Shown here piece by piece: positions 5,309 to 34,156 of a stretch of 64,000 bases of DNA. Numbering within the stretch: the stretch's first letter is position 1; every line of letters starts with the position of its first letter. A program made the translations under genes and the position numbers. The notes under the pieces are model-generated. The model saw nothing but the letters and a program-made list of their open reading frames with translations, had not been told where the DNA came from and did not search any database. The DNA is taken from assembly GCF_056746865.1 (NCBI RefSeq), contig NZ_CM163382.1, one strand, 5' to 3'.

Positions 5309-5362
5309 GATTAAACACTCCTGAAAGCAGAGGTGGCCGGGCAAACACCGGCCACTCACAGG

Positions 5363-6139: not shown

Positions 6140-6758
6140 GGCGCACCTCCCGAATGTTCATGATCGCCCCTTCTTTGTCGCCCGTAGGTCGCGCCAGCGG
6201 ATGCGGTTTAATTATCAGGTTAGGATGCGTAAACGAAGCGGCAGGTAACGGTGCGATTTCATTTTCACTGCCATATTTCGCCCGCAATTCGTCGATAGGA
6301 CCAAAATCCAAAGCTCGCTGTGGACAGGACTCAACACAAATAGGCGGGAGATTTTTCTCCAGTCGGTCAAGGCAACCATCACACTTACGCATCACTTTAG
6401 CTTGTGTATCAAACTGCGGTGCACCATAAGGGCAGCGCATTTCGCAGTAACGACAGCCCACACAAACACTGTCATCCACCAGCACCAGGCCATCTTCTTC
6501 GCGTTTGTGCATCGCGCCGGTTGGGCAACCTGCCACACAGGTCGGTTCATCGCAGTGATTGCAGGCAATCGACAAATAGTAAGTGAAGGTATTGTTGTGC
6601 CAGCTTTCACCTTCTTTCACCCAGCTACCGCCACCATATTCATACACGCGGCGCAGCTTCGGTCCGACATCCAAATCTTTATTATCCTTGCAGCTTACCT
6701 GGCAGGTTTTGCAGCCAGAGCAACGCGAGGAGTCAACGTAAAAACCATACTGTTTCAT
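6132..6758 (-). CDS. DMSO reductase-type iron-sulfur subunit (DmsB/YnfG-like)
   Basis: MKQYGFYVDSSRCSGCKTCQVSCKDNKDL... with four ferredoxin Cys motifs. Confidence 0.8.
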   Translation of the reverse strand: MKQYGFYVDSSRCSGCKTCQVSCKDNKDLDVGPKLRRVYEYGGGSWVKEGESWHNNTFTYYLSIACNHCDEPTCVAGCPTGAMHKREEDGLVLVDDSVCVGCRYCEMRCPYGAPQFDTQAKVMRKCDGCLDRLEKNLPPICVESCPQRALDFGPIDELRAKYGSENEIAPLPAASFTHPNLIIKPHPLARPTGDKEGAIMNIREVRHA

Positions 6759-6771
6759 TGCGGATCACTCC

Positions 6772-9207: not shown

Positions 9208-9287
9208 TTTATTTTCTCACATTGTTTTCATAATTATTATTAATACGACATATGAGGTAATCATAAAGAATTAGTAATTCATCATGA

Positions 9288-9301
9288 TTGATTATGATCA
9301 A
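9288..9301. promoter_or_regulatory. Consensus FNR box (TTGAT-tatg-ATCAA) about 87 bp upstream of the dmsA-like start
   Basis: Perfect TTGATnnnnATCAA palindrome; a TATGAT -10-like hexamer lies ~32 bp downstream on the coding strand; a second near-consensus site GTGATcattATCAA at 9337-9350. Confidence 0.5.
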
Positions 9302-9560
9302 GTGAGATTTGGTGCTTAGCACAAATATAAATATTTGTGATCATTATCAAAATGTAAATGATAACGCATCTTTATTATCATTTGAGATTAAATATCACGC
9401 AGCGTTAATCTAAGGAAGGTGCGAATAAGCAGGTCATTTCTTCCCAAGTTGACTCGCTGATTAAAATTTCGCGGAGCTGGGCCGATTTTTTTCCCGCAAA
9501 CACATCGAATCAGCCTGTTTAGGCTATTTTTTCCACCATTTCTGGCGTTATTTCCGGTTT

Positions 9561-11847
<2,287 letters not shown>

Positions 11848-11870
11848 TCAGGAACTTGTTCGCACCTTCC

Positions 11871-12465
11871 CAAGAGAACGCAACAGCGCACTTGCTTTGC
11901 CACAGTTGAATTTTGTGCCGTAACGATGTGCAAGCATGTAAGCATAAGGAGTCAAGGTATAGCGTGTTACTTAGTTACTCGGATTAACAATCCCAACGTA
12001 CAGAGCGGCGGATTTAGAGAGTCAGCGCAGTCCCTGCTCCGGCAGTCAGTGGCAGGCGGCGTACTGAAGCAAACCATTATCGATACCGGCATCGGCGATA
12101 CCATCGGCATGCTGATGTCACACGGCAATATTTCTCCCTACATCATGGCGTGGTTGATAACCGTGCTGATCCGTCTGGCAACGGGTCAGGGCGTGGTCTC
12201 AGCCATGACGGCGGCGGGGATTATTAGCGCAGCAATCCTCGACCCGGCAACCGGTCAACTGGTGGGCGTCGACCCGGCGTTGCTGGTGCTGGCAACAGCG
12301 GCTGGCTCCAACACGCTGACCCATATCAACGATGCTTCGTTCTGGCTGTTCAAAGGCTACTTTGATCTGTCGGTGAAGGATACGCTGAAAACCTGGGGTC
12401 TGCTGGAGCTGGTAAACTCCGTGGTTGGCCTGATAATCGTGTTGATCATCAGCATGATTGCATAA
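11871..12465 (+). pseudogene. GntP-family permease, 3' fragment truncated by IS5 copy B
   Basis: C-terminal transmembrane sequence ...[34 protein letters not shown]...[27 protein letters not shown]...; the track ORF 11554-12465 reads through from the IS5 end. Confidence 0.6.
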
Positions 12466-12514
12466 CGTTGATACCGCTCTGGCGCACAGCGCCAGAGCGG
12501 TTTTCCATCCTGCC

Positions 12515-13210
12515 TCAACAATCCTCAATAATCAGATATACCGCCTTCACCGGACCATGCACCCCAACCACCTTGATAAGCTCAATATCCGCCGTCGAGC
12601 TGGGTCCACTGATGATATTAATGCACGATGGCATACGCTCACCGGCCTGTGCTTTCTGATGCAGTTTTTCTGCCAGCTGCGCCACGCGCGGCAGGATGGT
12701 GCTTTTACGCAGCACGAAAATAGAGGACTCCGGCAACAGGCTCAGGGAGCGCCCGCGCTCCGGTGCGGAAAACAGCACCACGCCGCCGGACTCGGTCAGG
12801 CCATATTCGGCATACACCACGCCGACTTTCGCCTGCTCGGCCTGGGTAATATTTTCGCTACCACGCGCCGGATCCCAGACCACGGCGTTGCATTCCTGCT
12901 GCAAGCGTTCGGTGATGCCCAGCTCCACCAGCCGGCTGTCGCCGCTCAGCACCACCGGCTGCTGACCCAATTCTTCGCACAGGCGCAGTGCCGCGTCTGC
13001 GGCCTGGTCCTCGCTGGTCAGTTCGCAGCGGGCCAGCATCACTTCGCTGGCAAACTGGATAAACGCAGAGCAGCGCTGCTCGGGGCTAAGCTCGGTCAGG
13101 CGCTCGTTGGCATAGTTGTTAACCGGTGCGGCATCCGCTTGCGGTTCGAAGCGCAGCGGGCGACCCAGCGCCTGGGCGATGGTGTTTAAAAACGCGGTAC
13201 GGTTATCCAT
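12515..13210 (-). CDS. lutC: Lactate utilization protein C (LutC/YkgG family)
   Basis: MDNRTAFLNTIAQALGRPLRFEPQ... matches remembered E. coli YkgG; SD AGGAG; start overlaps lutB stop. Confidence 0.8.
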   Translation of the reverse strand: MDNRTAFLNTIAQALGRPLRFEPQADAAPVNNYANERLTELSPEQRCSAFIQFASEVMLARCELTSEDQAADAALRLCEELGQQPVVLSGDSRLVELGITERLQQECNAVVWDPARGSENITQAEQAKVGVVYAEYGLTESGGVVLFSAPERGRSLSLLPESSIFVLRKSTILPRVAQLAEKLHQKAQAGERMPSCINIISGPSSTADIELIKVVGVHGPVKAVYLIIEDC

Positions 13211-14630
13211 TCTTTTTCTCCTGCGCCTGATGTTTCTTAAACCAGCTGCGGAAGCTCTCGCCGTCAGCATCAGGCAGATCGCGCGCCTCCATCCAGTCAC
13301 CAATCGCGCCAACCTTGAGCGGGGTTTTGCCGCCATTGATAAACCAGCTCGCCGCATGCGCGCCCGCCATCATCCCGACTTTCCACAGCCCCGGATGGCT
13401 ATTGGCATAGGCGAACATCTTGATCGCCCGTCGCTCGGCTTTCGGCGTAATGCCCTCCTCGGCCATCACCCGGCGATGACGCAGGATCAGTTTTGACAAC
13501 GGAATACGCACCGGGCAGACGCTGTCACAAGCCGTGCACAAAGAACAGGCGTACGGCAGGTCTTTAAAATCTTTATAGCCGCCGAGCAGCGGAGAAATCA
13601 CCGCGCCGATAGGGCCGGGATAGATAGAGCCATAGCCGTGCCCGCCGATGTGGCGGTACGCCGGACAGGTGTTCATACAGGCTCCGCAGCGGATGCAGCG
13701 CAGCACATCGCGAAACTCTGAGCCCAGCACCTGCGAGCGACCGTTATCGACAATCACCAGATGGAACTCTTCCGGTCCGTCAACGTTGTCCGCATCACGC
13801 GGGCCGGTCAGCCAGGTGTTGTAGCCCGTCAGACGTGCGCCCACGGCGCTGCGCGCCAGCATGGTAATCAGCACATCCACCTCGGCAAAGGTCGGCGCGA
13901 TACGCTCCATGCCCATCACCGCAATGTGCGTTTTCGGTAGCGTGGTGCACATGCGCGCGTTGCCTTCGTTGGTCACCAGACACACCGAGCCGGTTTCCGC
14001 CACGGCAAAGTTACAGCCAGTAATACCGATTTCGGCACTGAGGAAATCCTCGCGGATCTTCTGACGAATGAACAAGGTCATAGCTTCCGGGGTTTCCGGG
14101 CCGTCGTACCCCAGACGTTCGTTCAGCACGCGGCGGATCTGGTAGCGATCTTTATGAATCGCCGGAACCACGACGTGCGAAGGCGGATCCTGATCCAACT
14201 GCAGGATATATTCCCCGAGATCGGTTTCGATCACCTGGATTCCGGCATCCTGCAACACATGGTTGACGCCGATTTCTTCGGTCACCATCGACTTGGACTT
14301 CACCACCTTCTGCGCATTTTTACTCTGCGCGACCTGCAAAATGTAGCGAGTGGCATCTTCTTTGGTTTTGGCGAAATAGACGTGTCCGCCGTTTTCCGTC
14401 ACTTTCTCGGAGAGTTGGTACAGGTAAGCGTCGAGGTTGCTCAGAACGTGATCGCGGATCTGGCTGGCACGATCGCGCCATTCTTCCCAGTGGCCTAACT
14501 CATCGACCATTTTTTGCCGATTCGCGCCGATACGCTCCTGCGCATTAGCCACGGCTTTGCGCATAATCGGATCTTCTATCTGCTGACGAATACGCAGTTT
14601 AAATTCTACATCGCTGGTTTTTATCGACAT
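13203..14630 (-). CDS. lutB: Lactate utilization iron-sulfur protein B (LutB/YkgF family)
   Basis: MSIKTSDVEFKLRIRQQIEDPIMRKAVANAQERIGANRQ... and CxxCxxC motifs. Confidence 0.85.
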   Translation of the reverse strand: MSIKTSDVEFKLRIRQQIEDPIMRKAVANAQERIGANRQKMVDELGHWEEWRDRASQIRDHVLSNLDAYLYQLSEKVTENGGHVYFAKTKEDATRYILQVAQSKNAQKVVKSKSMVTEEIGVNHVLQDAGIQVIETDLGEYILQLDQDPPSHVVVPAIHKDRYQIRRVLNERLGYDGPETPEAMTLFIRQKIREDFLSAEIGITGCNFAVAETGSVCLVTNEGNARMCTTLPKTHIAVMGMERIAPTFAEVDVLITMLARSAVGARLTGYNTWLTGPRDADNVDGPEEFHLVIVDNGRSQVLGSEFRDVLRCIRCGACMNTCPAYRHIGGHGYGSIYPGPIGAVISPLLGGYKDFKDLPYACSLCTACDSVCPVRIPLSKLILRHRRVMAEEGITPKAERRAIKMFAYANSHPGLWKVGMMAGAHAASWFINGGKTPLKVGAIGDWMEARDLPDADGESFRSWFKKHQAQEKKNG

Positions 14631-14640
14631 CTCTTTCCCC

Positions 14641-15360
14641 TCAGCGGCTCATCAGCACTTCAGCAATATGCATCACTTTGACCGGCTGGCCTTCCCGTTG
14701 CAGTCGACCGCCAATGTTCAGCAGGCAGCTAACGTCTGCGCCAATCAAAAATTCCGGCTTTGCGTCCATCAGATGTAATACTTTCTCTTTCACCATCTCA
14801 CCGGATATCTCGGCCATCTTGACCGAGAACGTCCCGCCAAAGCCGCAACAGGTATCCTGATCGGCAAACGTCAACAGCTCCAGTCCGCGCACGTTTTTCA
14901 GCAGCGTAAGCGGCTCTTCCTTCACTCCCAGTTTGCGGGTCAGGCTACAGGAAGGATGATACACAGCGCGGCCCTGCAGGCTGGCACCAACGTCCACCAC
15001 ACCCAGTTTGTTGACGATAAAGGAGGTGAGATCCTGCATACGCGCGGAAACTTTCTCAGCACGCAGCGCCCATTCCGGTTCATCGGCCAGATACGTCGGG
15101 TAGCTTTTAACCGCGTAGGTGCAGGAGCCCGCCGGGGAGATAATCGGATCGTCGTTGTCTTCCAGCGCGGCGATCAGGTTTTTCATCCCGGGGATCGCCT
15201 CTTTGATGTAACCGCTGTTGATGGCTGGCTGACCGCAACACCCTTGCTTCTCGGGGAAATTAACGCGACAACCCAGTTTTTCCAGCAGCAATACGGAGTC
15301 TCGTGCCATCCGTGATTTCAGTGCGTCACCAATACAGGTGACAAAGAAATTTACATTCAC
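14641..15360 (-). CDS. lutA: Lactate utilization protein A (LutA/YkgE family, Cys-rich)
   Basis: MNVNFFVTCIGDALKSRMARDSV... with CCG motifs. Confidence 0.85.
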   Translation of the reverse strand: MNVNFFVTCIGDALKSRMARDSVLLLEKLGCRVNFPEKQGCCGQPAINSGYIKEAIPGMKNLIAALEDNDDPIISPAGSCTYAVKSYPTYLADEPEWALRAEKVSARMQDLTSFIVNKLGVVDVGASLQGRAVYHPSCSLTRKLGVKEEPLTLLKNVRGLELLTFADQDTCCGFGGTFSVKMAEISGEMVKEKVLHLMDAKPEFLIGADVSCLLNIGGRLQREGQPVKVMHIAEVLMSR

Positions 15361-15434
15361 AATAACTACTCCATTGCTTCATTTCTGTTTATTGCGCTTG
15401 ATATCGCGATATCAAACAAATGTTCATTCGTATT

Positions 15435-17132
15435 TCATGCCCAGTTTTTATGTTTGCTGGTTTTACCAATACCTGGATTCATAGTGTTGGTCGGATCATT
15501 TTCCTGATAAAAACGTGCCAAATTTTCCGGCGCTTTATACAGATGGCCGACATTGTGTTCCGCCGGATATTGCGCTCCGCGTTGGCGCAGTAATTCCAGC
15601 ATCTGTTCTTTTAACGCGTGGGCATCTACGCCTTTTTTAACGATATAATCCTGATGGAATACATGGCACATAAAATGGCCGTAATAGAGTTTATGCACCA
15701 ACTGACTGTCAATTTCCGCAGGTAAATACTCATACCATTCGGTATCATTGCGGCGTAATGCAATATCCAGCGCGAGAATATCCTCAACCTCGTCAGAATG
15801 AACGGCCTGATAACGAATGGCAGCACCCGCGGCGGCAAAACGATGCAGAAACGCCTTACTGCCCTCTTCCGCGGTACAGGTAAAGAACGCGCCCTCGGCC
15901 GATTTAAAATAGTCCGTTAACCATGCCTGGGCTTCGGCCACACCCTCGCCGGACATTTTCAACATCAGATGGTGTTCATAGTTATCGCGCCAGGTCTTCA
16001 TCCGCGCCGGGAGATGGCTCGGGAACAGATGGCTAAAAGCCTGCATCGCGCGGTCAGTAAAGTGCGGGCGAAAGATCTTCACCTTCTCAAGTATGGCCTC
16101 GGTACGCCCCTTCAGGTTGAAGAAGAACGGCATTTTGTCCGTGCCAAGTTTGTCGATCATCAGGAAGGTATCTTTGCTGTATTTCTCTGCAATATCATAG
16201 ATATCGCGGTGCATATACTCCCCAGCAACCGGCAGGTTTGTAAAATTCGCCAGGATGTGGCGGCGAATCTCAGTCAGGACATCAGTCTGATTGGTACCGA
16301 TATAAAAGACCTGCTGGTTCTTCTCGGCTTCAAAGGTATCCAGACGTACGGCAAACACCGCTAACTTGCCCGCGCAGCCAGAGGATTCAAACAGGCGATC
16401 CGGGTCAGCGTTGTAACGTGCTGGCGTGTCGGCATTGATGTCCCGCACGCGGCTAACATAGTCGTGATCGTGCGCGTGACGTCCGTCATGGTTGACGAGC
16501 GCGGCTTCAATCACATTGTTATCCAGCCGGGCAAGGATTTGCTCTGGCGTCTGACCTAGCTCAATGCCAAGGTGATTGACCAGCTGCAAGCGTCCCTGTT
16601 CATCAATGCGGGCAAACAGCGACATCTCGGTGTAAGCCGGGCCTCGCTGGACCAGAGAACCGCCCGAGTTATTACAGATACCGCCGATAACCGACGCGCC
16701 GATGCACGAAGAGCCGATCACCGAATGCGGCTCACGGCCAAACGGCTTCAGCGCCCTTTCCAGCGAGTACAGCGTGGTGCCCGGATAAGCCAGCACCTGC
16801 TTGCCCTCATCCAGCACATGCAGACTGTCCAGCCGCAGCGTGCTGATAATGACGATCTCGCGGTCGTAGTCATTACCATTTGGCGTCGAACCCTCGGCCA
16901 GGCCTGTGTTCGACGCCTGCATCAGGATTATTTTATCAGCCTCAACGCAGGCGCTGAGGACTTTCCAGAGTTCAAGCAAAGAGCCGGGGATAACCACCGC
17001 CAGAGCATCACCCTGACCCGAGCGGAATCCCTTACGGTAACGCGCAGTTTTTGACGGTTCGGTGAGGATATGAGCAGGGCCAACCAATTGGGTAAGAGTC
17101 GTCAAAAAGGTCTTATTATCAGTATGTTTCAT
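15435..17132 (-). CDS. dld: FAD-dependent D-lactate dehydrogenase (Dld paralog)
   Basis: High similarity along the whole length to remembered E. coli Dld (ARYRKGFRSGQGDALAVV...NPGIGKTSK). Confidence 0.8.
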   Translation of the reverse strand: MKHTDNKTFLTTLTQLVGPAHILTEPSKTARYRKGFRSGQGDALAVVIPGSLLELWKVLSACVEADKIILMQASNTGLAEGSTPNGNDYDREIVIISTLRLDSLHVLDEGKQVLAYPGTTLYSLERALKPFGREPHSVIGSSCIGASVIGGICNNSGGSLVQRGPAYTEMSLFARIDEQGRLQLVNHLGIELGQTPEQILARLDNNVIEAALVNHDGRHAHDHDYVSRVRDINADTPARYNADPDRLFESSGCAGKLAVFAVRLDTFEAEKNQQVFYIGTNQTDVLTEIRRHILANFTNLPVAGEYMHRDIYDIAEKYSKDTFLMIDKLGTDKMPFFFNLKGRTEAILEKVKIFRPHFTDRAMQAFSHLFPSHLPARMKTWRDNYEHHLMLKMSGEGVAEAQAWLTDYFKSAEGAFFTCTAEEGSKAFLHRFAAAGAAIRYQAVHSDEVEDILALDIALRRNDTEWYEYLPAEIDSQLVHKLYYGHFMCHVFHQDYIVKKGVDAHALKEQMLELLRQRGAQYPAEHNVGHLYKAPENLARFYQENDPTNTMNPGIGKTSKHKNWA

Positions 17133-17563
17133 GGAGGGCGGCTCTCCGCTCCTTATATCAGGGCCAGTGAAAATGGCTATAAGTTCATTTGTATGACAAA
17201 GCAGAATATTCCCTCAATCAATATCCACATGCAATACCCCATTTTATTTCTTTCGGTACCGCTCACATTTTTTAATGAAATTACCACCGCCATATAATTC
17301 ATACCTCGCCCTTTGAGGGGATGCCAAAACACTTATTTATTGCAAAGATCATCCCATACCTATTAATGATTAACTCTAATGGGTGTTGTAATATTTAGTG
17401 GTTATTCATATTTAATAAAAAAAATAACATTATTTATACAATTATTAACCTTTATAACTTTATTTCACTGAAGCGATTCAGTTAGCATTTTTTATTTTAT
17501 TATTCAGGTAGCTTCCTTCCCCATAAATATAGCTCAGTCTAAAAAAGTAAATCGGGAATTGTA

Positions 17564-19117
17564 ATGCACGAATATTTAATGTTTGCTCTGGCACTCTCTC
17601 CTTTGCTGCTGATGGTATTTTTAATACTGAAATTAAAAATGCCCATCCATTATTCCGTACTGATCTCTTTGGTATTCACCGCTGCACTATCGGCAATATT
17701 CTGGGAAATGCCCGTACAAAATTTGAAAGCCGCGATAGGCTATGGTGCACTGAAGGGACTATGGCCGATCGTAATTGTTATCCTCGGCGCTATCTTCAGT
17801 TATAACGTCATGCAGGCGACCAAAGCGCTGGATATTCTGCGCGATATTCTCGCCAGCATTAGCGAAGATAAGCGTATTCAGGTGCTGCTGATTTCATGGT
17901 GTTTTGGTGGATTTCTTGAAGCCGCTGCGGGCTATGGCACGGCGGTCGCTATTCCGATCGGTATTCTCATTGCGCTGGGATTCAACCCGTTGAAGGCGGC
18001 GATTGCTTCCCTCGTAGCAAATACCGTTCCGACCGCATTTGGCGCGGTTGGGATCCCGGTTTCTATTCTGGCAGAGCAGGTTAATCTGCCGGTTTATACC
18101 TTAGGCGGAACCATTATTTTGCAGCTCGCGCTGTTTAATATCCTGCTGCCGTTTGTGATTGTCTGCATTATTGGCGGTGGCCTGAAAGCCATTCGCGGCG
18201 TATTTCTGATCACGTTGATTTGCGGCATTTCCACGCTGATTCCGCAATATTTTGTCGCCATCCATCTTGGCGCGGAATTACCCGCTTTTGCCGGTAGCCT
18301 GGTCAGCCTGTTTGCCGTGGCGATGGTCAGTCGCCTGCGCAAAGGGAAAACCGATCCAGAGTGGCGCATTGAGGTCAGCCATACCCGCGAAACCACGCCG
18401 CGCTCGGCAAAAGTGTTGTTCCGCGTGGGCTCTATCTATCTGTTTATTTTTGTGTTTATCCTGCTGTGTTCGCCGCTGTTTCCGACAATAAAAGGCGCGG
18501 CATCCCAACTGGCTTCGGTGCTGCATTTCACGTTGGCTGACGGCAAAACGATGGCACTGAAAGTTGAATGGGTGACCACACCAGGGATGCTGATTATCTT
18601 TGCGACCATTATCGGCGGTTTTATTCAGGGAGCGTCCGCACGCGGGATGCTGGAAGTATTTATCAAAACGATTTTCCAGCTTAAAAACTCTATCGTGGCA
18701 ATTATGGCGATCGTCGCGCTGGCCACGGTGATGGATCTCAGCGGGATTATCTCCACACTGGCGCAGTCGATTGTCGATCTGACCGGCAGCTCGTACGTCT
18801 TCCTCGCCCCGGTGATTGGCGCGCTGGGCACGTTCGTTACCGGCAGCGATACCAACTCGAACATTCTGTTTGGCAAGCTGCAAACCATAGCTGCCAGCAA
18901 GTTACATATCGATCCCAACTGGCTGGCGGCGGCCAATACCTCTGGCGCTACGGGGGGCAAAATGATTTCGCCGCAAAGCATCGCCATCGCGGTTTCTGCC
19001 ACCAAAATGGACGGTCAGGCCAATCAGATCATGTCTGGCACCATGAAATACTGCTGTGCCTACATTGTGATCCTTGGCCTGAAAGTCGGTCTCTTTTATT
19101 ACTGGTTTATGGCGTAA
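17564..19117 (+). CDS. Lactate permease (LctP/LldP/GlcA family)
   Basis: 517-aa polytopic protein; conserved GSDTNSNILFGKLQ and GKMISPQSIAIA segments of LctP-family transporters. Confidence 0.8.
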   Translation: MHEYLMFALALSPLLLMVFLILKLKMPIHYSVLISLVFTAALSAIFWEMPVQNLKAAIGYGALKGLWPIVIVILGAIFSYNVMQATKALDILRDILASISEDKRIQVLLISWCFGGFLEAAAGYGTAVAIPIGILIALGFNPLKAAIASLVANTVPTAFGAVGIPVSILAEQVNLPVYTLGGTIILQLALFNILLPFVIVCIIGGGLKAIRGVFLITLICGISTLIPQYFVAIHLGAELPAFAGSLVSLFAVAMVSRLRKGKTDPEWRIEVSHTRETTPRSAKVLFRVGSIYLFIFVFILLCSPLFPTIKGAASQLASVLHFTLADGKTMALKVEWVTTPGMLIIFATIIGGFIQGASARGMLEVFIKTIFQLKNSIVAIMAIVALATVMDLSGIISTLAQSIVDLTGSSYVFLAPVIGALGTFVTGSDTNSNILFGKLQTIAASKLHIDPNWLAAANTSGATGGKMISPQSIAIAVSATKMDGQANQIMSGTMKYCCAYIVILGLKVGLFYYWFMA

Positions 19118-19364
19118 GCCATTGTCAACCCCGTCAAATTCGCGGCAATCGTATTTGACGACACAGTGACCAAAAAGGTTTATACCACCCCAGAAACGGA
19201 ACAAGGCGACAGGCTTTACGATTTGTCGGCGCTGACTAAAATAGCGCCGATGTTTCAAATCGAGGATTGTTGTTATGTTGTTCTGGAAAAAGATGGTGAA
19301 GAAGTTCGACGCCTTTTCCGCGTTGATTCCACCACGCTACTTCCGCGTGTAATACCTGGCACTT

Positions 19365-19470
19365 ATTCCTGATGGCGCTTCGCTTATCAGGCCTACATTT
19401 CACACTCATTTGTAGGCCTGCGTTTCACGCTCATTTATAGGCCGGATAAGGCGCGAGCCGCATCCGGCAG
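19365..19470. repeat. REP/BIME-type repetitive extragenic palindromes
   Basis: GCCGGATAAGGCG...CGCATCCGGCAG and CTGATGGCGCTTCGCTTATCAGGCCTACA units. Confidence 0.7.
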
Positions 19471-19538
19471 CAACAGCAGCGTAAAATGCTCACCCCTTTC
19501 TCTTACGCAGACCGCATGCTCTTAACACCACCACCCAC

Positions 19539-20053
<515 letters not shown>

Positions 20054-20075
20054 CTATTTCCCTGCCTCTCCTCCC

Positions 20076-20109
20076 CGAACCGGACGTGCACCTTTCAGCG
20101 CATCCGGCT
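20076..20109 (-). ncRNA. Group II intron domain V (catalytic hairpin)
   Basis: 34-nt GAGCCGG...GAAA...CCGGTTC hairpin matching the domain V consensus, just 3' of the reverse transcriptase stop. Confidence 0.75.
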
Positions 20110-20115
20110 CTCCAT

Positions 20116-21639
20116 TTAAATGCTGGCGAACGCCATTGCCACTTCTGTAAAGCGCGATGTATACGTGTTTCTGGTCTCCGTCCTCAGATAGGGATTACCT
20201 TCGGGTAGCCGCCAGCGGAACAGCTTCTTGCCTTGCCCCACCAACCGGTACAGTATTTCGCCGCTGAGCTTGCCGTGATTGGTTTTACCAAATAAAACCC
20301 ACGTTTTGCTCTGACCCGGTTTCGGTGATTTACACCACCACCTCATCAGGGAAGCGATACCTGTACGGTATTTGCGGGCCAGCCAGTGAGCCAGCTTCCA
20401 GAACACGACACGGTCGATATAACTGAAGACTTTGGCCTTAAAATCAACGAACTGATAGAACATGGCCCAGCCTTTCAGTTTTCGGTTGAGTTGTTCAGCC
20501 ATATCGACTTTGCTTTCACTGTAGTTGCCTGATAACAGTGCTGTCAGCGATGCGGCGAAGTTTCTGGCTTTCTCCTGCGGGATCGTTGAGACCACTCGCA
20601 TCTCGCCATAACGACTGCGTTTGCGAATGATCCTGTGCCCCAGAAAGATAAAGCCGTCATTAACATGGGTGATTTTAGTCTTATCCATGTTCAGCCTGAG
20701 TTTCAGACTGCCTTCGAGCACACCCCGACACTCCTCCCTGATGGCTTCCGCCTGTGCTTTGGTGCCTTTGACGATGAGGACAAAATCATCGGCATAGCGG
20801 CAGTACGCCACCGCGGGTTTCCACTGCCAGTTTTCTCTGACCGCCGTACTTCGGCCCCGTTGGATACTGTTATTCCAGTACCACCGATCTTTTCTGGCTT
20901 TCCCGCTCAGGTAGCGCTCATGCAGGTATTGATCGAACTCATTCAGCATGATGTTCGATAATAGCGGCGATATAACACCGCCCTGTGGCACACCTTCACT
21001 GGCCGCCCGAAAGAGACCGACATCGATATGTCCCGCCTTGATGGTTTTCCACAGCAGAGTCATGAAACGTGCGTCACTGATCCTGCGGCGTACAGCCTTC
21101 ATCAGCAGTCGATGATGTACGGTGTCGAAGTAACTGGACAGGTCGCCTTCAATCACCCAGCGTCCCCGGGTTTCACCACAGTCTGTGAGCTGTAATTTCA
21201 CCGTGCGGATCGCGTGGTGGACACTGCTCTCAGGCCGGAAGCCATATGAGAGCGTATGAAAATCACTCTCCCATATCGGCTCCATCGCCATCAGCATGGC
21301 CCGCTGAACAATACGATCCCGCAACGCGGGGATACCCAGTGGTCGCAGTTTGCCGTTGCTTTTAGGGATGTAAACCCGTCTGGCGGGCAAGGGCTGGTAG
21401 TGGCCTGAGAGTAATTCATCCCTGAGGATTTGCAGCTCAACAGCCAGTCTGGCCTGTAGCATTGTTTTGTTCACGCCATCAACGCCGGGGGTATGGGCCC
21501 CCTTTGATGAAAGCGTGATCCGCGCCGCTTCAGCCAGCCATTCTGGTTGTGTTATCAGACGCAGCAGCCGTTGAATCCGTAGGGACGGATCGGTGGCTGC
21601 CCATGTGGCAAGCTTGCGTTGCATTTCGCTGATTATCAA
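20116..21639 (-). CDS. Group II intron-encoded protein (reverse transcriptase with maturase domain); TTG start
   Basis: RT motifs including the YADD box (AVAYCRYADDFVLIV) and GKLRPLGIPALRDRIVQ; located in intron domain IV. Confidence 0.85.
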   Translation of the reverse strand: MIISEMQRKLATWAATDPSLRIQRLLRLITQPEWLAEAARITLSSKGAHTPGVDGVNKTMLQARLAVELQILRDELLSGHYQPLPARRVYIPKSNGKLRPLGIPALRDRIVQRAMLMAMEPIWESDFHTLSYGFRPESSVHHAIRTVKLQLTDCGETRGRWVIEGDLSSYFDTVHHRLLMKAVRRRISDARFMTLLWKTIKAGHIDVGLFRAASEGVPQGGVISPLLSNIMLNEFDQYLHERYLSGKARKDRWYWNNSIQRGRSTAVRENWQWKPAVAYCRYADDFVLIVKGTKAQAEAIREECRGVLEGSLKLRLNMDKTKITHVNDGFIFLGHRIIRKRSRYGEMRVVSTIPQEKARNFAASLTALLSGNYSESKVDMAEQLNRKLKGWAMFYQFVDFKAKVFSYIDRVVFWKLAHWLARKYRTGIASLMRWWCKSPKPGQSKTWVLFGKTNHGKLSGEILYRLVGQGKKLFRWRLPEGNPYLRTETRNTYTSRFTEVAMAFASI

Positions 21640-22295
21640 AGGTCTTCACCTCGTTAGGTCAGTTAATTCACGTCGCAAACACATTCAAACTGCTTCCCTT
21701 CGCCATGTAATGGGCTTTCCCCATCGCGGACTACTACGGAAGCTCCGCCAGCCAGCGCGTCATCGGAGCCATGCCCCCTTAACATCCGTCGCTGACCTTC
21801 CCCGGTTTACCGGCCTGGACTCAGGCATACTGAGGAGGCTGCCCGTCGCACTCTTTATCCTTGCTTGCCGCAAGTTGGCAGAAGTCAGCAATGCAAGCGT
21901 GATAGACGCTGCTGCCCCGGTGTTTCGCATACATGTCAAAACACCTTCGACCGGCAGTGCTTACGTATCACTGCCAGTTCCTCCTGCACGGCCTGTCAGA
22001 TCACGTAGGCCGTGGTGACGTTTTCAACCCACAGAGGCGGATTAACGGGTTCATGTTCTTCAGCCTTTCAGTACTTAACCTTGAGGATCATCTCGGCTTA
22101 GTGATCTCGCCTCAATCCCCGTTGTCAGCGGGTTACATCACCCTGCGGGCATGCCGCAGGTCACTGCCGCTCAGGTTCTCCACCGTCACACCCGGTGGGA
22201 TTGTTGGGTTTCTCATCGTGAGTTACCGGTTCAATATTCCAGACAGACTCGCGGTTCATTTAAGCATCCATGCCCGCCCTGAACTCCGGGCACAC

Positions 22296-22713
22296 CGTAA
22301 GTAAAATCAGCCACCCACAACTGGTCAGGACGTTCTGCCACAAACTGACGGTTTACGCGGTCGCCTGCGGCAACGGCTTTCCGGCTGACGGTAGTGCGGA
22401 CCTTTTTACCCCGGAGAACACCGGCAAGTCCCATAACCGCCATGAGGCGCGCCACTGTACATCTGGCTACCCTGATTCCTTCCCGTAACAACTGACGCCA
22501 GACTTTACGCACACCGTATACCTGATGATTCCCATCGTATACGCGCAGTATCTCTTTCTTCAGCCAGTCATCGCGCTGCGCACGGGCACTGCGTTTATCA
22601 GGATGATGTCGCTGTTGCTGACAGTGGTAATACGTTGACGGGGCAATATGTAGTTCACTGCATACCGGTCCGACCCCGTACAGCTTACGCAGCTTATCCA
22701 GCAGTGGCATCAC
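22296..22713 (-). pseudogene. IS629-like transposase OrfB, N-terminal ~139 codons, interrupted by the intron after ...QLWVADFTY
   Basis: [33 protein letters not shown]...; the track ORF continues 22 codons into intron sequence. Confidence 0.75.
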
Positions 22714-23036
22714 TTTTTCCAGAGGCGGTCGAACTCCACCTTCGCAAAATAAGCGGAAGCCTGGCGAAGGATATCGTTACTGCGGCGCAGTTCACGATTT
22801 TCACGTTCCAGCTCTTTCAGACGCTGACGTTCAGCGGTGGTGAGCCCGCCATCACCGCCTCCGGTATCCCGCTCATGCTGGCGCACCCAGACACGCAGAG
22901 TCTCCGGTGTACAGCCAATCTTTGGGGCAATGGAACAAATTGCCGCCCACTGTGAGTCATATTCGCCCTGACTTTCCAGAACCATACGAATCGCCCTCTG
23001 ACGGACTTCGGGGGAAAAACGAGTATTTTTAGTCAT
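22710..23036 (-). CDS. IS629-like OrfA (HTH)
   Basis: [50 protein letters not shown]... matches remembered IS629/IS1203-type OrfA. Confidence 0.8.
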
Positions 23037-23090
23037 TCTGTTTACCTCTTTCTCAGGGAGTTTAGTCTCCAGGATTCCCGGGGCGGCTCA

Positions 23091-23883
23091 GGTCACCGAT
23101 GCCGTGATGGAGCAGGTTGTAGAATGGCAAAACAGACCACTGGATGCTGTTTACCCCATTGTTTATCTTGACTGTATCGTCCTGAAAGTTCGGCAGGACA
23201 GTCGCGTCATCAACAAATCGGTGTTCCTGGCACTGGGCATCAATATCGAAGGTCAGAAGGAACTGCTGGGTATGTGGCTGGCCGAAAATGAAGGGGCGAA
23301 GTTCTGGCTCAATGTGCTGACTGAACTGAAAAACCGCGGTCTGAACGATATCCTCATCGCCTGTGTGGATGGCCTGAAAGGCTTCCCGGATGCCATCAAC
23401 ACAGTATATCCGAAGGCCCGCATCCAGTTATGCATCGTGCATATGGTGCGCAACAGCCTGCGCTTCGTGTCATGGAAGGACTACAAGGCCGTCACTCGCG
23501 ACCTGAAAGCGATTTATCAAGCTCCCACGGAAGAGGCAGGTCAGCAGGCACTGGAAGCGTTCGCTGCGGCCTGGGACAGTCGCTATCCTCAGATAAGCCG
23601 AAGCTGGCAGGCTAACTGGCCGAATCTTGCCACGTTCTTCGCTTATCCAACGGACATCCGCAAAGTGATCTATACGACGAATGCCATCGAGTCGCTAAAC
23701 AGCGTGATCCGCCATGCGATCAAAAAGCGTAAAGTGTTCCCGACAGACGACTCGGTGAAAAAAGTGGTGTGGCTGGCAATCCAGTCTGCGTCCCAGAAAT
23801 GGACGATGCCGTTGAAGGACTGGCGAATGGCAATGAGCCGCTTTATTATCGAGTTCGGTGACCGCCTGGACGGTCACTTCTGA
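23091..23883 (+). pseudogene. IS256-family (mutator-type) transposase, C-terminal ~264 codons; 5' part removed at the IS629-like insertion
   Basis: Coding ...VTDAVMEQVVEWQNRPLDAVYPIVYLDCIVLKVRQDSRV... begins immediately at the IS629-like end with no start codon or N-terminal domain. Confidence 0.7.
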
Positions 23884-24119
23884 GAAAAGGCATTTACACA
23901 GAATCCTAAACAGGCTCCCGTCACGATACCCGGTATCAATCAATGAAGTCCATTTAATTGATGACGTCGAAGTTATGGCATGTGTGACGATGCTGAGAAA
24001 GCGCCCTTTTTCAGGTGTTTTTTTAATCTTTTTGGGGTTTAAATTCCTATTGATGAACAACGCTTTCATTTACGGGACAATGACCGGCAACGCTCCCGGT
24101 ACACCGGGAGCGTTAGTGT

Positions 24120-25667
<1,548 letters not shown>

Positions 25668-25715
25668 TCACCCGCAACAAAAATGACGTGCACAACGGTT
25701 ACGGGCAGGAAACGG

Positions 25716-26642
25716 TCAGGGGTGTTTCAGTAAATCCTGGCGACGGGGTAACGCTGTCATGGCACCTTTTGCTGTCGTGGCAAGCGCACCACAGCGCTGG
25801 GCCTGTTCGATGACGGATGCGAGTGCCTGCTCACCGGAGGGCATCCCCTCTGCCGCCAGCGCCGCCAGCAGACCTGCCACGAAGGCGTCACCGGCACCGG
25901 TCGTGTCCACACTCACCACCGGTGTTGCCGGGAAGTACAGGTTTTTTCCCTGCCAGCGAGCCATCACGCCATCCTTTCCTTGGGTTACCAGCAGCAGTGC
26001 CAGGGGATAATGTGATGCCAGAACATCGGTTCCCTTCCGGACATCCTGTTCACCGCTGATAAAGAACAGTTCCTCTTCCGATACCTTTGCCACATCCGCC
26101 AGCATGAGCGCCCGGTGCAGACACTCACGCAGTTGCGATGTGCTCTGCCACAGGTCAGTCCGGATGTTGGGGTCAAAGCTGACCCTGCCGCCAGCCTGCC
26201 GGATGTTCTCCATGGCCTGAAACGTGGCGCTGCGGCAGGGCTCTGCACTCAGGGCATTGGAGCAGGTATGCAGCCATTCACCGGCACGAAAGGGCGGTAA
26301 ATCATCAGGGGTAAGGAAAAGGTCTGCCGAAGGGCGCACCATAAATGTGAAGGTTCGTTCACCACCCGGCACCAGCGACACCACCACTGTGGAAGTCCGG
26401 TACAGAGGGTCGGTATGCATATACGCCGTGTCCACACCCTCATCAGCCAGGGTTTTGCGCATAAAACGCCCGAAAGGGTCATCCCCCACACACCCGACAA
26501 ACCCGCTCAGGCCCCCCAGTCGGGCCACGCCCACGGCAACATTGGCAGGCGCACCACCAGGGCACTGCAACAGCGTGCCCGGCTTCTCCGGTAATAAATC
26601 CACCACGGCATCACCGAGACCCCATACTTTTACTGTACTCAT
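25716..26642 (-). CDS. PfkB-family fructokinase (ScrK/CscK-like)
   Basis: GDAVVDLLP...CPGGAPANVAVGVARLGG...DTTGAGDAFVAGLLA ribokinase-family motifs. Confidence 0.75.
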   Translation of the reverse strand: MSTVKVWGLGDAVVDLLPEKPGTLLQCPGGAPANVAVGVARLGGLSGFVGCVGDDPFGRFMRKTLADEGVDTAYMHTDPLYRTSTVVVSLVPGGERTFTFMVRPSADLFLTPDDLPPFRAGEWLHTCSNALSAEPCRSATFQAMENIRQAGGRVSFDPNIRTDLWQSTSQLRECLHRALMLADVAKVSEEELFFISGEQDVRKGTDVLASHYPLALLLVTQGKDGVMARWQGKNLYFPATPVVSVDTTGAGDAFVAGLLAALAAEGMPSGEQALASVIEQAQRCGALATTAKGAMTALPRRQDLLKHP

Positions 26643-26671
26643 TCATACTCCATGATTTTCATCAGTCATAT

Positions 26672-26983
26672 TCAGCGGATGACAGACAGCTCAAACATCG
26701 CCATATCCGTGGTTCCGGCTGGAATTGGATACCAACCCGCATTCCGGAGCAGGGCAGCGAGGGCAGACACATCGCCGGTCAGGGGATGCAGCAACCTCCC
26801 CTGATAATCAAATGCCGCCTCAAGACGTGAGCGGGAAAGATAAAAGCTGCCGGCATCCCCGTTCGGAACCACGACATTACGCCCCTCCCATTTCCGGTCG
26901 CTCAGTATCCGCCAGCACCAGCCCTGCTCCCTGATGGTTTCCAGGGCGAATGTCAGGCGGAACAGGTCAGTCTGTACCGACAC
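26672..26983 (-). CDS. Hypothetical protein (103 aa) within the sugar cluster
   Basis: ORF co-oriented and tightly spaced with neighbours; no family recognised. Confidence 0.4.
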   Translation of the reverse strand: MSVQTDLFRLTFALETIREQGWCWRILSDRKWEGRNVVVPNGDAGSFYLSRSRLEAAFDYQGRLLHPLTGDVSALAALLRNAGWYPIPAGTTDMAMFELSVIR

Positions 26984-27253
26984 ATCACCAGAGCAGGCCT
27001 GCCACAGATACTCCAGCCTGCTGCGGATATCTTTCGCCCCGCTTTCACTCTGCAGGGCTCTGATATGTGCGGGGAAAACGGTGCTGTTTCAGTGCTGTGC
27101 TCCGCCAGCGGTTTAGAAACAGGTTTTCCTGGATTTTTGACGCAATCCGGCCATCCCGGCGGGCCAGATGCAGGGCTACCAGCCCGCACCAGGCCAGATG
27201 TGCGGCTTTCCCTGATACCAGCTGCCCGCTGGCGATATTGTCACTCATGGCGC

Positions 27254-27769
27254 TTACTGGCTGCTGATATCAAAAACCGGTGTTTCTCCGGCGATGACCG
27301 GGCCGGAGAACAGGGTTATCTCCTGGACACGGTCAGAGTCCGCCACAATCACCGGTGTCAGCGTGGACTGTGCTTTCTGCTGAAGTAACGCAAGGTCAAA
27401 CCCGATGACGGGGTCACCGGTGCTGATCAGCTGGCCTTCCTGGGCAATACGCCGGAAACCCTCTCCCCTGAGGTCAACTGTGTTAATACCGAAGTGCACG
27501 AACAGTTCAGTGCCACTGTCGGTGCGGATGGAAAACGCGTGGTTTGTCTCCAGTATTTTACCGATAGTGCCGCTGACAGGAGCCATCAAGGTATCGCCGC
27601 CGGAAGGACGGATAGCAATACCATCCCCCACTATTTTCCCGGCAAACACAGCATCCGGAACCGTGTCCAGAGGGACAATTTCACCGGACAGCGGTGCCAT
27701 CACGCGGGTGACTTCCGCCGGTTTCTCATTTTCACTTATCAGTTGTTTAATCCTGCCCAGTAATCCCAT
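27254..27769 (-). CDS. PTS EIIA component, glucose family (Crr-like)
   Basis: MGLLGRIKQ...VFAGKIVGDGIAIRP...GKILETNHAFSI...ELFVHFGINTV resembles E. coli Crr. Confidence 0.8.
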   Translation of the reverse strand: MGLLGRIKQLISENEKPAEVTRVMAPLSGEIVPLDTVPDAVFAGKIVGDGIAIRPSGGDTLMAPVSGTIGKILETNHAFSIRTDSGTELFVHFGINTVDLRGEGFRRIAQEGQLISTGDPVIGFDLALLQQKAQSTLTPVIVADSDRVQEITLFSGPVIAGETPVFDISSQ

Positions 27770-27832
27770 TGTGCTTTCCTTCATTACGGGTGAACCGAAA
27801 GTACTGCCGTCACCGACGGCAGTGGAATTATT

Positions 27833-29263
27833 TCAGGCCAGCGTCCACAGTGAGCCGTCCGTCAGCACAGCCTCGCCGTGAGCTGCATATAGCGACAACC
27901 GGCGGGTTCCGGGCTGCGGGTAAATACGGCTGGACAGGGTGGCATCGCCATCGTTAACGAACACTTCCACCGATGAACGGTCCAGGAAAACCCGTAGCGT
28001 CAGATATTCTGCGCCAGGCAGCGCGATACTGCGGTAACCGTCCAGCCCCTCATCCGGGTAGTGACGCCAAAGCACCAGCCGTCCTGCCTGGTTATCCACA
28101 TACAGCCGGAGCCCGTCTCCCAGGTGGATGCCGTAATGCTCTGCCTGACTGTCGAGGGTATGCCACGTCAGCACCAGTTCCACGGCCTGTGCGTCCTCAG
28201 CCAGCAACTGCGTGCCACTGAGCCTTACAGGGTGTAACGGCTGGCACGTCCCGCGAAGGGATTCGGCTTCGCGAACCGGACGCTGACACAGACGACCATG
28301 GCGTTCAAAAAGTTCCCTCGGCAGGGTCAGACATCCGGCCCAGGCCTCACGCTTTGTAGGCATCGGGGAGTCCCACATATTCATCCAGGCCATGATGATG
28401 CGCCGTCCGTCCTCCGCGACCAGGGACTGCGGGGCATAAAAATCATGACCGTGATCCAGTTCTTCAAATGCCCCGCTCAGGGCAAAGGCGGCCCCCGGCT
28501 GCCAGTGACCCGGTAAAACTCCGCTCTGAAAGCGGTTGCGGAACCGGTATCCGCCGGGCGTCATCCCCTGCGGGGAGAACATCAGCCAGTGATGGTCGCC
28601 ACAGCGGAAAAAGTCCGGACATTCCCACATATAGCTTTCTCCGGCTGCCGACTGCGCTAGAACCCGTTCCTGGCGCCAGTCCCGCAGGGATGTGCCGCGA
28701 TACAGCAGCACCTGACCGGTGTCAGAGGTATCCCGCGCGCCGATAACCATCCACCAGTATCCCCCTTCCCGCCAGACCTTCGGGTCACGGAAATGCATGA
28801 TGCCTTCCGGTGGCGTCAGCACGCAGCCCTGTTTCTCAAAGTGAATGCCGTCACGGCTGGTTGCCAGACACTGGACTTCGCGGATGATGCTGTCATCCCC
28901 CCGATCCTCCAGACAGAGATGACCGGTGTAGATAAGCGACAGCACGCCGTTGTCGTCCACTGCGCTGCCGGAAAAACAGCCATCCCGGTCATATTCATCA
29001 CCGGGTGCCAGCGCAACCGGCTCATGCTGCCAGTGCAGCATGTCCGGACTGGTGGCATGTCCCCAGTGCATCGGCCCCTGATGTTCACTTGCCGGATGGT
29101 GCTGAAAGAATGCGTGATAGCGACCGCTGAAATAAATAAGCCCGTTCGGATCATTCATCCATCCGGCAGGTGGAGCCAGATGAAAAACCGGGTACCAGGT
29201 ATCACCACGACGGGCGCGGAGTGTATCAAGTGCAACCTGTGCAGAGGCAAGACGCTGTTTCAT
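27833..29263 (-). CDS. rafD: GH32 sucrose/raffinose hydrolase (invertase; RafD/ScrB/CscA family)
   Basis: WMNDPNGL, FRDPKVW and ECPD GH32 catalytic motifs. Confidence 0.8.
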   Translation of the reverse strand: MKQRLASAQVALDTLRARRGDTWYPVFHLAPPAGWMNDPNGLIYFSGRYHAFFQHHPASEHQGPMHWGHATSPDMLHWQHEPVALAPGDEYDRDGCFSGSAVDDNGVLSLIYTGHLCLEDRGDDSIIREVQCLATSRDGIHFEKQGCVLTPPEGIMHFRDPKVWREGGYWWMVIGARDTSDTGQVLLYRGTSLRDWRQERVLAQSAAGESYMWECPDFFRCGDHHWLMFSPQGMTPGGYRFRNRFQSGVLPGHWQPGAAFALSGAFEELDHGHDFYAPQSLVAEDGRRIIMAWMNMWDSPMPTKREAWAGCLTLPRELFERHGRLCQRPVREAESLRGTCQPLHPVRLSGTQLLAEDAQAVELVLTWHTLDSQAEHYGIHLGDGLRLYVDNQAGRLVLWRHYPDEGLDGYRSIALPGAEYLTLRVFLDRSSVEVFVNDGDATLSSRIYPQPGTRRLSLYAAHGEAVLTDGSLWTLA

Positions 29264-30552
29264 AAGCGAACCTCCGTCTGTGCTGTAGCGGTTTCTGCTG
29301 ACGGGGCAGCCGTTTTACGGGTACTGCTCAGGGTGAAAGCCGATAACACGGTGACCGCAAGGACAATACCGCCCAGAACCAGATAGGTGTTCTGGAACCC
29401 CATGCGGTCATACAGGTGACCTGCAAAGGTTGAGAGGAATATCGCCGCCAGTTGTTTGGAGAACTGAAAGCCAATCAGATAAATGGTGGCCGACAGCCGG
29501 GTATCAAACACGCCGGTGATATACTTGAACGCACCAACCAGCAGGAATGGGACTTCAAGGGCATGCAGCATTTTCAGGATCACCACTTCAGTAGCCGTGG
29601 TGGCAAAGGCCGACCCTGTGATGCGGATGGTCATAATCAGACCCGCGACAAGCAGTGTGTTTTTGGCACCAATGCGGTTGATTATCCAGGGGGAGCAGAA
29701 CATGATGATGGCATTGCAAATCTCGCCAGCCGTGGTGGCAAAACCAAATGCCCGGATCCCCGCCTGCGGCGTGTCAAAAAATGCACGGAAGAACGTGGCA
29801 AACTGCTGGTCAAACACGTCATAGACGCAGGCCACCCCAATCATGTAAAGCACGAACATCCACATCTGACGCATACGAAACAGACTGAACACCATTCCGG
29901 CGGAAATCACGGGCGAGTTGGCACCCAGCGCATTCATGACCATCGCTGTCTGACTGGTTCCGGGACGCGCCAGCGCCACCAGAAGGACCAGCAGCAATGC
30001 GCAGCCGGACCCCATCCAGAATACCAGGGACGGATCCACGTTGAAAAGCAGCCCTGCCGTGGTGGCACACAGCGCCCAGCCCAGACAGCCGAACATCCGG
30101 GCCTTACCGTATTCAAATCCGCTGCTGCGGCTGACACGTTCAATATAGGCTTCGATGGCACCGGCTCCCGCAGAAAAAACGAAGCCGATAAAAATCCCGC
30201 CGCTCAGTGCTCCGGCCCAGATGTTGAACCGCAGCAGCGGCGCAAAAACGTACAGAAAGAACGGTGCAAACAGGACCAGCAGCAGGCTGATGATCCACAT
30301 CAGGTGTTTTTTCAGGCCAAGACGGTCTGAGATGACCCCCAGCAGCGGCTGGAAGCTGATGGCAAACAGGGAGAGGCATGAAAAAACAATCCCGGTATCC
30401 GTTTTACTCAGCCCCACAATGTCTGACAGCCAGACGGGCAGAAACGGGAAACAGGTTGCCATGATGAAAAAGTAGAGAAAAAAGAACAGACCAAATATCC
30501 AGAAATCGGGGTTTTTATGAGTACTGACAGTATTCATTATTGTTATCCTCAC
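29260..30552 (-). CDS. rafB: LacY-family oligosaccharide:H+ symporter (raffinose permease RafB-like); start may be the ATG at 30537
   Basis: 12-TM MFS protein with strong similarity to LacY (NPDFWIFGLFFFLYFFI...). Confidence 0.8.
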   Translation of the reverse strand: MRITIMNTVSTHKNPDFWIFGLFFFLYFFIMATCFPFLPVWLSDIVGLSKTDTGIVFSCLSLFAISFQPLLGVISDRLGLKKHLMWIISLLLVLFAPFFLYVFAPLLRFNIWAGALSGGIFIGFVFSAGAGAIEAYIERVSRSSGFEYGKARMFGCLGWALCATTAGLLFNVDPSLVFWMGSGCALLLVLLVALARPGTSQTAMVMNALGANSPVISAGMVFSLFRMRQMWMFVLYMIGVACVYDVFDQQFATFFRAFFDTPQAGIRAFGFATTAGEICNAIIMFCSPWIINRIGAKNTLLVAGLIMTIRITGSAFATTATEVVILKMLHALEVPFLLVGAFKYITGVFDTRLSATIYLIGFQFSKQLAAIFLSTFAGHLYDRMGFQNTYLVLGGIVLAVTVLSAFTLSSTRKTAAPSAETATAQTEVRL

Positions 30553-30591
30553 GGGACTGAGTGCAGGGAGCCGTGACCGGCTCCGGTCCTT

Positions 30592-32718: not shown

Positions 32719-32811
32719 AAGACATCTCCGTTTTCGGGTATGCCTTACTGTTGATCCGAATCGTTTCGGATAGCAACCGAAACGATTCGAATTTGTGAGC
32801 GGGATTAAAAA

Positions 32812-33822: not shown

Positions 33823-34156
33823 ATTTTCTCCTGCGGATAACTGAACAGCCCTGTCCCTGATGCGGGTGATCCGGGCAACAAACCTGACAGAGACGCCTGC
33901 ATAAGTGGTCGCGCTGTACCAGTATGAGCCTCCATCATCCTGATTTGTGTATTAACTTTCAATACCGGAGGACGATTTGATTACCGGTTGTTAGCAGGAG
34001 TGCGAATATTAGACCGACGGTGGAGATCTAAGACTCAGTGAGCATAGCGATACACTATATTACTGTAATTAAGCCAGTAAACTTCCTGTTCACTGGCTTA
34101 AACGCTAATGATGTATGCAGTTGAACAAGCTTTTAAACTAATGATTAATTGATATA

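Follow-up and report, generated by a model that had tools for sequence, protein, structure and literature searches.

A BIME beside an IS911 end in an Escherichia coli island traces, by sequence comparison, to a Citrobacter lactate locus

By comparison with an identical E. coli chromosome, the window analysed here (that is, the whole stretch of 64,000 nucleotides) contains an IS-rich island that extends to position ~35,300 and abuts phoH and pgaDCBA. The phoH copy next to the island is shortened, with 789 bp vs 1065 bp in K-12. Positions 1-12000 and 23000-35300 of the island are a patchwork of IS fragments (IS1, IS3 family, ISKpn26 and IS1414) in which a type I restriction-modification system, a porin and a raffinose/sucrose-type sugar cluster are also found. 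Between these two parts lie a block of lactate genes, a pair of palindromes and an interrupted IS element, as follows.

12052-12465, + strand: 3' fragment of gntP (gluconate permease), left edge of the Citrobacter-derived segment, defined by the onset of homology at 12052
12515-15360, - strand: lutC, lutB and lutA (ykgG, ykgF and ykgE), lactate oxidation (RefSeq annotation of the identical E. coli locus; Pfam CCG domain)
15435-17132, - strand: dld, D-lactate dehydrogenase (Pfam Lact-deh-memb, E = 5e-148)
17564-19117, + strand: lctP, L-lactate permease (Pfam Lactate_perm, E = 1e-125)
19275-19352, + strand: 25-codon ORF MLFWKKMVKKFDAFSALIPPRYFRV, with GAGGA 7 nt upstream and a promoter-like site at 19215-19242
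19367-19396, + strand: REP 1, short and z2-like, CCTGATGGCGCTTCGCTTATCAGGCCTAC; an inverted copy with its CTAC tail at 19393-19396
19389-19413 and 19414-19438, no strand: a tandem pair of 25-bp units, 84% identical (repeat search), both made of a REP foot and a linker
19436-19468, listed on the + strand: REP 2, y-type, ATAGGCCGGATAAGGCGCGAGCCGCATCCGGCA, in the orientation opposite to REP 1
19471-19538, - strand: remnant of a 36-codon ORF (last 15 codons and 3' flank), cut by IS911; right edge of the Citrobacter-derived segment
19539-20025, - strand: right-hand 487 bp of an IS911/ISEc52-type element of the IS3 family (Pfam rve domains; inverted repeat at 19539-19562)
20026-22295, - strand: group II intron of 2270 bp, inserted in IS911 between positions 487/488, with an RT/maturase ORF at 20116-21639

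Read from the sequence, the interval 19367-19468 is a BIME made of two inverted REPs whose feet face each other (tail to tail). The tetranucleotide GTAG, or CTAC when inverted, is conserved at the palindrome foot of REPs (PMC3333891). The CTAC foot is intact in REP 1 and REP 2 is one base off, with ATAG at 19436-19439 where most Citrobacter orthologues have GTAG. A repeat search also found a perfect 10-bp inverted repeat (CAGGCCTACA / TGTAGGCCTG) within the BIME. This inverted repeat and the same layout in the K-12 and Citrobacter alignments identify the pair as a BIME, and its site is extragenic, between the stop codon of the 25-codon ORF (19352) and the convergent remnant of the 36-codon ORF. 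The second of the two 25-bp units begins with a partial REP, in effect a third foot (GTAGGCCTG), which is there because the 25-bp duplication created it; the first-pass annotation of this DNA had made no mention of a tandem duplication between the REPs. To name the subtype, we took BIME-1 as z1 plus y with a long L linker and BIME-2 as z2 plus y with a short S linker. The basic BIME linker has 17 nt in C. gillenii and the REP types resemble z2 and y, which tentatively suggests that the Citrobacter/island BIME is BIME-2-like.

The palindromes had initially been taken for REP/BIME elements by eye, with formal consensus scanning proposed as the check. Consensus scans, folds and alignments with K-12 BIMEs all bear this out, both palindromes matching the tail consensus as well as REP2-I. 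First, the REP tail consensus CTTATCMGGCCTAC, allowing at most one mismatch, has three matches in the 64-kb window vs 0.03 expected, and two of the three are REP 1 and REP 2. Second, REP2-I (ICGICTTATCIGGCCTAC), a published REP-PCR primer consensus (PMC9962274), has five matches in the window vs 0.07 expected when up to two mismatches are allowed; both REPs are among them, with 1 and 2 mismatches over the 15 specified bases. Third, REP 1 folds into an imperfect hairpin with a bulge (-11.2 kcal/mol, z = -3.3), and REP 2 into a hairpin with stems of 7 and 3 bp separated by a 2x2 internal loop (-19.7 kcal/mol, z = -3.8). Fourth, a BLAST comparison with E. coli chromosomes aligned 96% of the length of the 106-bp element at ~77% identity with unannotated intergenic sites. 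The K-12 counterparts lie in the artJ-rlmC and mtlA-mtlD intergenic regions and have the same order of REP, linker and inverted REP, the part common to both sides of the alignment being a short CCTGAT-type REP, a linker and then the REP GTAGGCCGGATAAGGCG...GCCGCATCCGGCA.

In 3,847 E. coli genomes, we counted 11,369 matching places, and no annotated feature lay under any of the matches listed. The RefSeq annotation of a 45-kb K-12 stretch contains no repeat features. The Rfam search of the element returned only a sub-threshold naRNA4 match at 19440-19509 (24 bits, below the gathering score), which spans the y-type REP. The naRNA4 family is a derivative of REP325. Where the window consists of core chromosome there is another REP/BIME at 45329-45414, in which a CCCCCC linker joins a y-type inverted REP to a long CCTGAT-type REP, and a second REP pair at 62250-62338; a simple palindrome (GCCGGATGCGACGCATCCGGC) is found at 61312-61332.

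The element shares with the E. coli REP/BIME family, whose y, z1 and z2 palindromic units follow the nomenclature of Bachellier and Gilson (summarised in PMC3333891), imperfect palindromes of 30-35 nt that have a mismatch within the stem and GTAG/CTAC at the foot (one base off in REP 2), inverse copies around a linker, an extragenic position at the 3' ends of convergent genes, and a number of repeat units that varies among related genomes at one locus. It differs from the K-12 BIMEs by a pair of indels in the stem of REP 1 and by the ATAG of REP 2, and from the family at large by sitting in horizontally moving DNA, which is rare for REPs. The long linker of the artJ-rlmC and mtlA-mtlD BIMEs also does not match the window linker ATTTCACACTCATTT. 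These two K-12 linkers presumably carry an IHF site. The idea that these are hairpins arisen by chance, or a common terminator outside the REP family, to which the departures of REP 1 from the K-12 z2-type (a G lost, a G gained and a single substitution) and the ATAG of REP 2 might lend some colour, is ruled out by the full-length K-12 alignment and by the excess of matches in both consensus scans, and it also runs against the canonical GTAG and CTAC of the Citrobacter orthologues and the absence of a T-run terminator at the site. Together, these data confirm that the palindromes are real REPs forming a BIME, and ordinary members of a well-known family.

On either side of the BIME lies a small ORF. 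The promoter-like site upstream of the 25-codon ORF reads TTTACG-16-TAAAAT, and the encoded peptide is 100% conserved in 12 of the 15 Citrobacter, plasmid and island loci compared and 96% conserved in the other three, the nucleotide changes being mostly synonymous. Its stop codon lies 14 nt from REP 1, a distance of 0-2 nt in three Citrobacter species. This ORF is unannotated, and the databases searched gave neither a family nor a name for it. The 36-codon ORF (MFLTLLRLQHPLVYRFAWLRLWV...) is cut by IS911 after codon 21 in the window and is intact in all ten Citrobacter chromosomes (at 11952-12062, - strand, in the reference Citrobacter locus L006), where it is the last ORF of the tpl-permease-(pdxY) unit and is annotated as hypothetical only; family searches returned no name for it.

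An IS911-like end had been placed less than 70 bp from the palindromes, and it starts 69 bp from 19470, exactly where the Citrobacter homology ends. The terminus TGAAGTGGTCAACAAAAACTGGCC begins at 19539, that is after 68 bases (19471-19538) when counted from 19470, or 70 bases when counted from 19468. The element was assigned to IS911 by its terminal repeat starting TGAAGTGG, its near-identity to reference copies and its rve domain. Its 19539-20025 part matches positions 1-487 of an intact IS copy of 1249 bp on a Klebsiella plasmid at 96.9-100% identity. The other (left) 764 bp of this intact copy match K-12 IS911A at 99.2%, and RefSeq names it ISEc52 family. At the junction, the window reads ...CCACCCAC/TGAAGTGG vs ...CCCAC/AGACGAAG in Citrobacter, the homology stopping exactly at the IS911 repeat. 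No target-site duplication was found around the intact plasmid IS911 (flanks CAC vs AAC), so the junction looks like the end of a rearrangement rather than a simple insertion.

The intron that interrupts IS911 was recognised by the Rfam Intron_gpII model (domain V/VI) at 20026-20112 and by the Pfam domains RVT_1 and GIIM, and in RefSeq the ltrA gene of the identical E. coli locus is a pseudogene with an internal stop. The same insertion in IS911 is found on a K. pneumoniae plasmid (L098), which indicates that the intron entered IS911 before the island and plasmid copies split. After the intron, 28 bp of IS911 resume and are followed by a different IS3-family fragment; the left end of IS911 is missing in the window because this fragment and an IS1414 fragment begin after these 28 bp. 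The IS3-family fragment region (22296-23036, - strand) contains a full ALIL frameshift pseudoknot (Rfam RF01497, 111.7 bits, 22639-22755), and the IS1414 fragment comes after it.

As the origin of the lactate module had been predicted to be an enterobacterial chromosome, with a search for the donor context in other genomes named as the way to check it, we searched for that context and found it in Citrobacter chromosomes. In a protein scan of the permease covering one genome per bacterial species, Citrobacter was the only genus with LctP at 93-99% amino-acid identity, on contigs of up to 4.2 Mb. The matches include C. portucalensis, C. braakii, C. youngae, C. werkmanii and C. gillenii, and identity reaches 99% for the first three. 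At the DNA level, 12052-15505 and 17138-19541 align collinearly with Citrobacter chromosomes, the homology starting at 12052 inside a full-length gntP of 447 aa (locus L006). In ten Citrobacter species the locus has the order uxuA-gntP-lutCBA-lctP ... (pdxY)-aromatic amino-acid permease-tpl (tyrosine phenol-lyase) and is free of IS elements. An apparently longer gntP ORF in another locus (L095) turned out to be an artefact, as it reads into IS-side sequence.

Among species representatives, C. portucalensis is the closest member of the C. freundii complex, with 95-98.5% identity per segment, distributed as follows.

gntP fragment: 98.1%
lutC, lutB and lutA: 96.1%, 98.5% and 97.4%
lctP, first and second halves: 95.9% and 97.7%
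spacer and small ORF: 98.0%
BIME: about 95%
post-BIME stretch: 97.0%

The gene dld together with the dld-lctP spacer (~15435-17563) is missing from this site in nine of the ten Citrobacter species. Among the species representatives, C. gillenii alone has dld between lutA and lctP, at 84.7% identity, and an exact look-up of the Dld protein for a donor with dld at this position yielded, among the matches listed, only the IS-flanked mobile form. As C. portucalensis, the species representative closest to the window, lacks dld and its spacer here, the block may combine DNA of two Citrobacter lineages as a mosaic, or may come from a Citrobacter lineage that has yet to be sampled. At the level of sequence comparison, these data confirm that the BIME is chromosomal in origin and that the donor genus is Citrobacter.

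The case resembles that of C. freundii ampC (blaCMY-2), which together with blc-sugE is a chromosomal block that IS elements brought onto plasmids: both come from the same donor genus, the locus cut out is a chromosomal one of housekeeping type, the genes at the edges are truncated, an IS lies at the boundary and the block has spread on conjugative plasmids. It differs in that the cargo is lactate catabolism and that the boundary IS is IS911/ISEc52 or IS1, each of which is only a candidate mover.

In Citrobacter chromosomes two units converge, both with a conserved small ORF as their last ORF, and the BIME occupies the spacer that separates them; it is present at the same position in seven of the ten species. 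The number of 25-bp units varies between these loci. C. braakii, C. werkmanii, C. youngae, C. gillenii and Cu233 have no extra unit (REP, 17-nt linker and inverted REP only), C. sp. wls619 has one extra unit, as do the window and the plasmids, and C. portucalensis has two. In the three other species, a GC hairpin with a 10-bp stem (-18.9 kcal/mol) replaces the BIME. BIMEs have been described to vary in this way, both in whether they are present and in their number of copies. Judged by its orthology, the BIME is native to the Citrobacter lut-lctP locus.

If instead the REPs had been added after the block reached E. coli, for example by a host TnpA(REP), they would tell nothing about the donor, and the y and z2 types of REP do occur in E. 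coli as well, which reportedly encodes TnpA(REP) (PMC3333891); this is ruled out by the 100% identity of the 106 bp in 135 plasmids of Klebsiella, Raoultella, Citrobacter and E. coli and by the orthologous BIME of Citrobacter chromosomes, which has conserved sequence on either side.

We then considered the copies of the block on plasmids. From 12084 to the IS911 junction, 142 plasmids carry the block at 98.2% identity, and most of them are conjugative IncFIB/IncFII plasmids from K. pneumoniae. More broadly, the module is carried by plasmids of Klebsiella, E. coli, Raoultella and Citrobacter, and some of these records have the identical intron in IS911. The Klebsiella plasmid block starts at 12084 (in L005 and others) and hence contains 32 bp less of gntP than the island. 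This, together with the 1.8% difference between the island and Klebsiella plasmid copies, indicates that the plasmid forms examined are not the direct parent of the island copy; given the extra 32 bp of gntP in the island, the two would rather have a common ancestor, neither being simply derived from the other. The prediction made for the origin is supported, with one caveat. An enterobacterial chromosome stands as the ultimate source, since a locus conserved in ten Citrobacter species aligns collinearly with 12052-19538 and has the orthologous BIME at the same place. That the cargo did not come from a plasmid holds for this ultimate origin only, since the identical module and IS911 junction are found on many plasmids. 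The block probably reached E. coli via the plasmid pool and not directly from a chromosome.

The same gene set is known from the LctP-Dld-YkgEFG cluster of the E. coli plasmid pFec10, which is an IncY plasmid (PMC7984374). In the excerpted passages of that paper, neither REPs nor a Citrobacter origin of the lactate genes is brought up, and such an origin is proposed only for the tetrathionate operon of pFec10 (PMC7984374).

That REPs are characteristic of chromosomes, as the first-pass annotation held, agrees with how the BIME matches are distributed: in the E. coli set, 11,347 are chromosomal and 22 are on plasmids, and 19 of these 22 are the lactate module itself. Only 178 of 72,556 plasmids (7.3 Gb) have any BIME match, a number that includes a few records of 4.8-4.9 Mb that are mis-filed chromosomes, and in 135 of the 178 the match is the lactate module with a BIME 100% identical to that of the window. 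These counts indicate that REPs of this family are strongly depleted from plasmids.

Two further mobile forms have other breakpoints. In the first, an IS1 end lies inside the BIME linker, at the place corresponding to 19401/19402 and 5 nt past the REP foot (3037/3038 in both L099 and L100); it is found in E. coli on an IncY plasmid (L100) and in K. quasipneumoniae on an IncF plasmid. The second is on an IncHI1B E. coli plasmid from poultry (L087, 2292-9781) and is a separate capture, 96-99% identical to C. gillenii, with the basic BIME, a deletion of ~456 bp in dld and ~0.7 kb more of Citrobacter DNA before an IS1. By these comparisons, the lactate block has been mobilised from Citrobacter chromosomes at least two times.

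The opposite direction, in which the block is native to plasmids and was passed to Citrobacter chromosomes, could be argued from its frequency on conjugative IncF plasmids and from one copy on a C. portucalensis plasmid. However, the Citrobacter locus has no IS flanks and keeps its synteny in ten species, among which its divergence ranges from 80% to 98%, and both gntP and the 36-codon ORF are intact in Citrobacter and truncated in every mobile copy examined. A plasmid-native origin is thus strongly disfavoured, and we consider it very improbable.

It could also be that the BIME structure itself drew the IS elements, the REPs acting as IS targets and so fixing the end of the mobilised block. 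Three IS junctions do cluster in this region, namely IS911 at 69 bp, IS1 in the linker and, in the C. gillenii-type capture, IS1 ~0.7 kb downstream, and a published survey reports REPs as IS targets (PMC1525189). However, IS911 lies outside the REPs and its flanks show no target duplication. As for IS1, it prefers AT-rich DNA, and the BIME linker is AT-rich, as IS1 would favour. Moreover, any block that keeps lctP must break within the short 3' region, so that clustering is expected from selection alone. We regard targeting by the REPs as unlikely, though it deserves some weight.

Our preferred reading, to which we give a probability of about 90%, joins three elements: a genuine BIME of the C. 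freundii complex, its transfer as the passenger of a block cut by IS elements, and a putative role at the 3' end of a transcript. The steps that concern the origin follow from comparing sequences. The BIME arose in a chromosome of the C. freundii complex, in a short spacer between convergent transcription units, one being lctP with the 25-codon ORF and the other tpl, an aromatic permease, sometimes pdxY, and the 36-codon ORF. There it replaces a simple GC-rich hairpin. IS elements would then have cut the block from a C. portucalensis-like chromosome, from the gntP fragment through lutCBA, dld and lctP to the BIME, which was carried along as a passenger, with IS911 making the right edge 69 bp beyond it (19470 to 19539). 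The block subsequently spread on large conjugative plasmids and into the E. coli island beside phoH.

With regard to function, no intrinsic terminator was found in 18900-19700, and the relatives devoid of the BIME have a plain hairpin at the same place. For these two reasons, the most likely role of the REP hairpins is to structure the 3' end of the mRNA of lctP and the small ORF, where they would protect this mRNA against 3' exonucleases and help to end transcription.

TnpA(REP) cleaves and recombines in vitro at GGCC/T-type sites in REP feet and linkers (PMC3333891), and the variation in unit number fits, as we infer, TnpA(REP) recombination between REP feet and linkers. Binding and cleavage need GTAG and a stem mismatch, and mutation of GTAG abolished TnpA(REP) binding in vitro (PMC3333891). 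By inspection, these sequence prerequisites are intact on the REP 1 strand and impaired in REP 2 by its ATAG. Because mutating GTAG abolished binding, an ATAG foot would be expected to impair recognition, and REP 2 may be inert as a substrate of TnpA(REP).

A bolder proposal is that the BIME and the 25-codon ORF work as one regulatory unit and that plasmid BIMEs seed REPs and IS breakpoints in new hosts. We hold this to be rather doubtful. If it were true, a REP hairpin near the stop codon might stall terminating ribosomes and thereby tune a small protein that is co-transferred with the permease.

The finding adds nothing new to REP biology, and it does help to read the history of the island. 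As REPs are almost confined to chromosomes, a REP pair in mobile DNA is an inexpensive and dependable sign that chromosomal DNA was captured. In the present case, the pair pointed directly to Citrobacter as the donor genus and to the exact breakpoints, the left one within gntP and the right one at the IS911 repeat, of a capture that now circulates widely on Klebsiella and E. coli plasmids.
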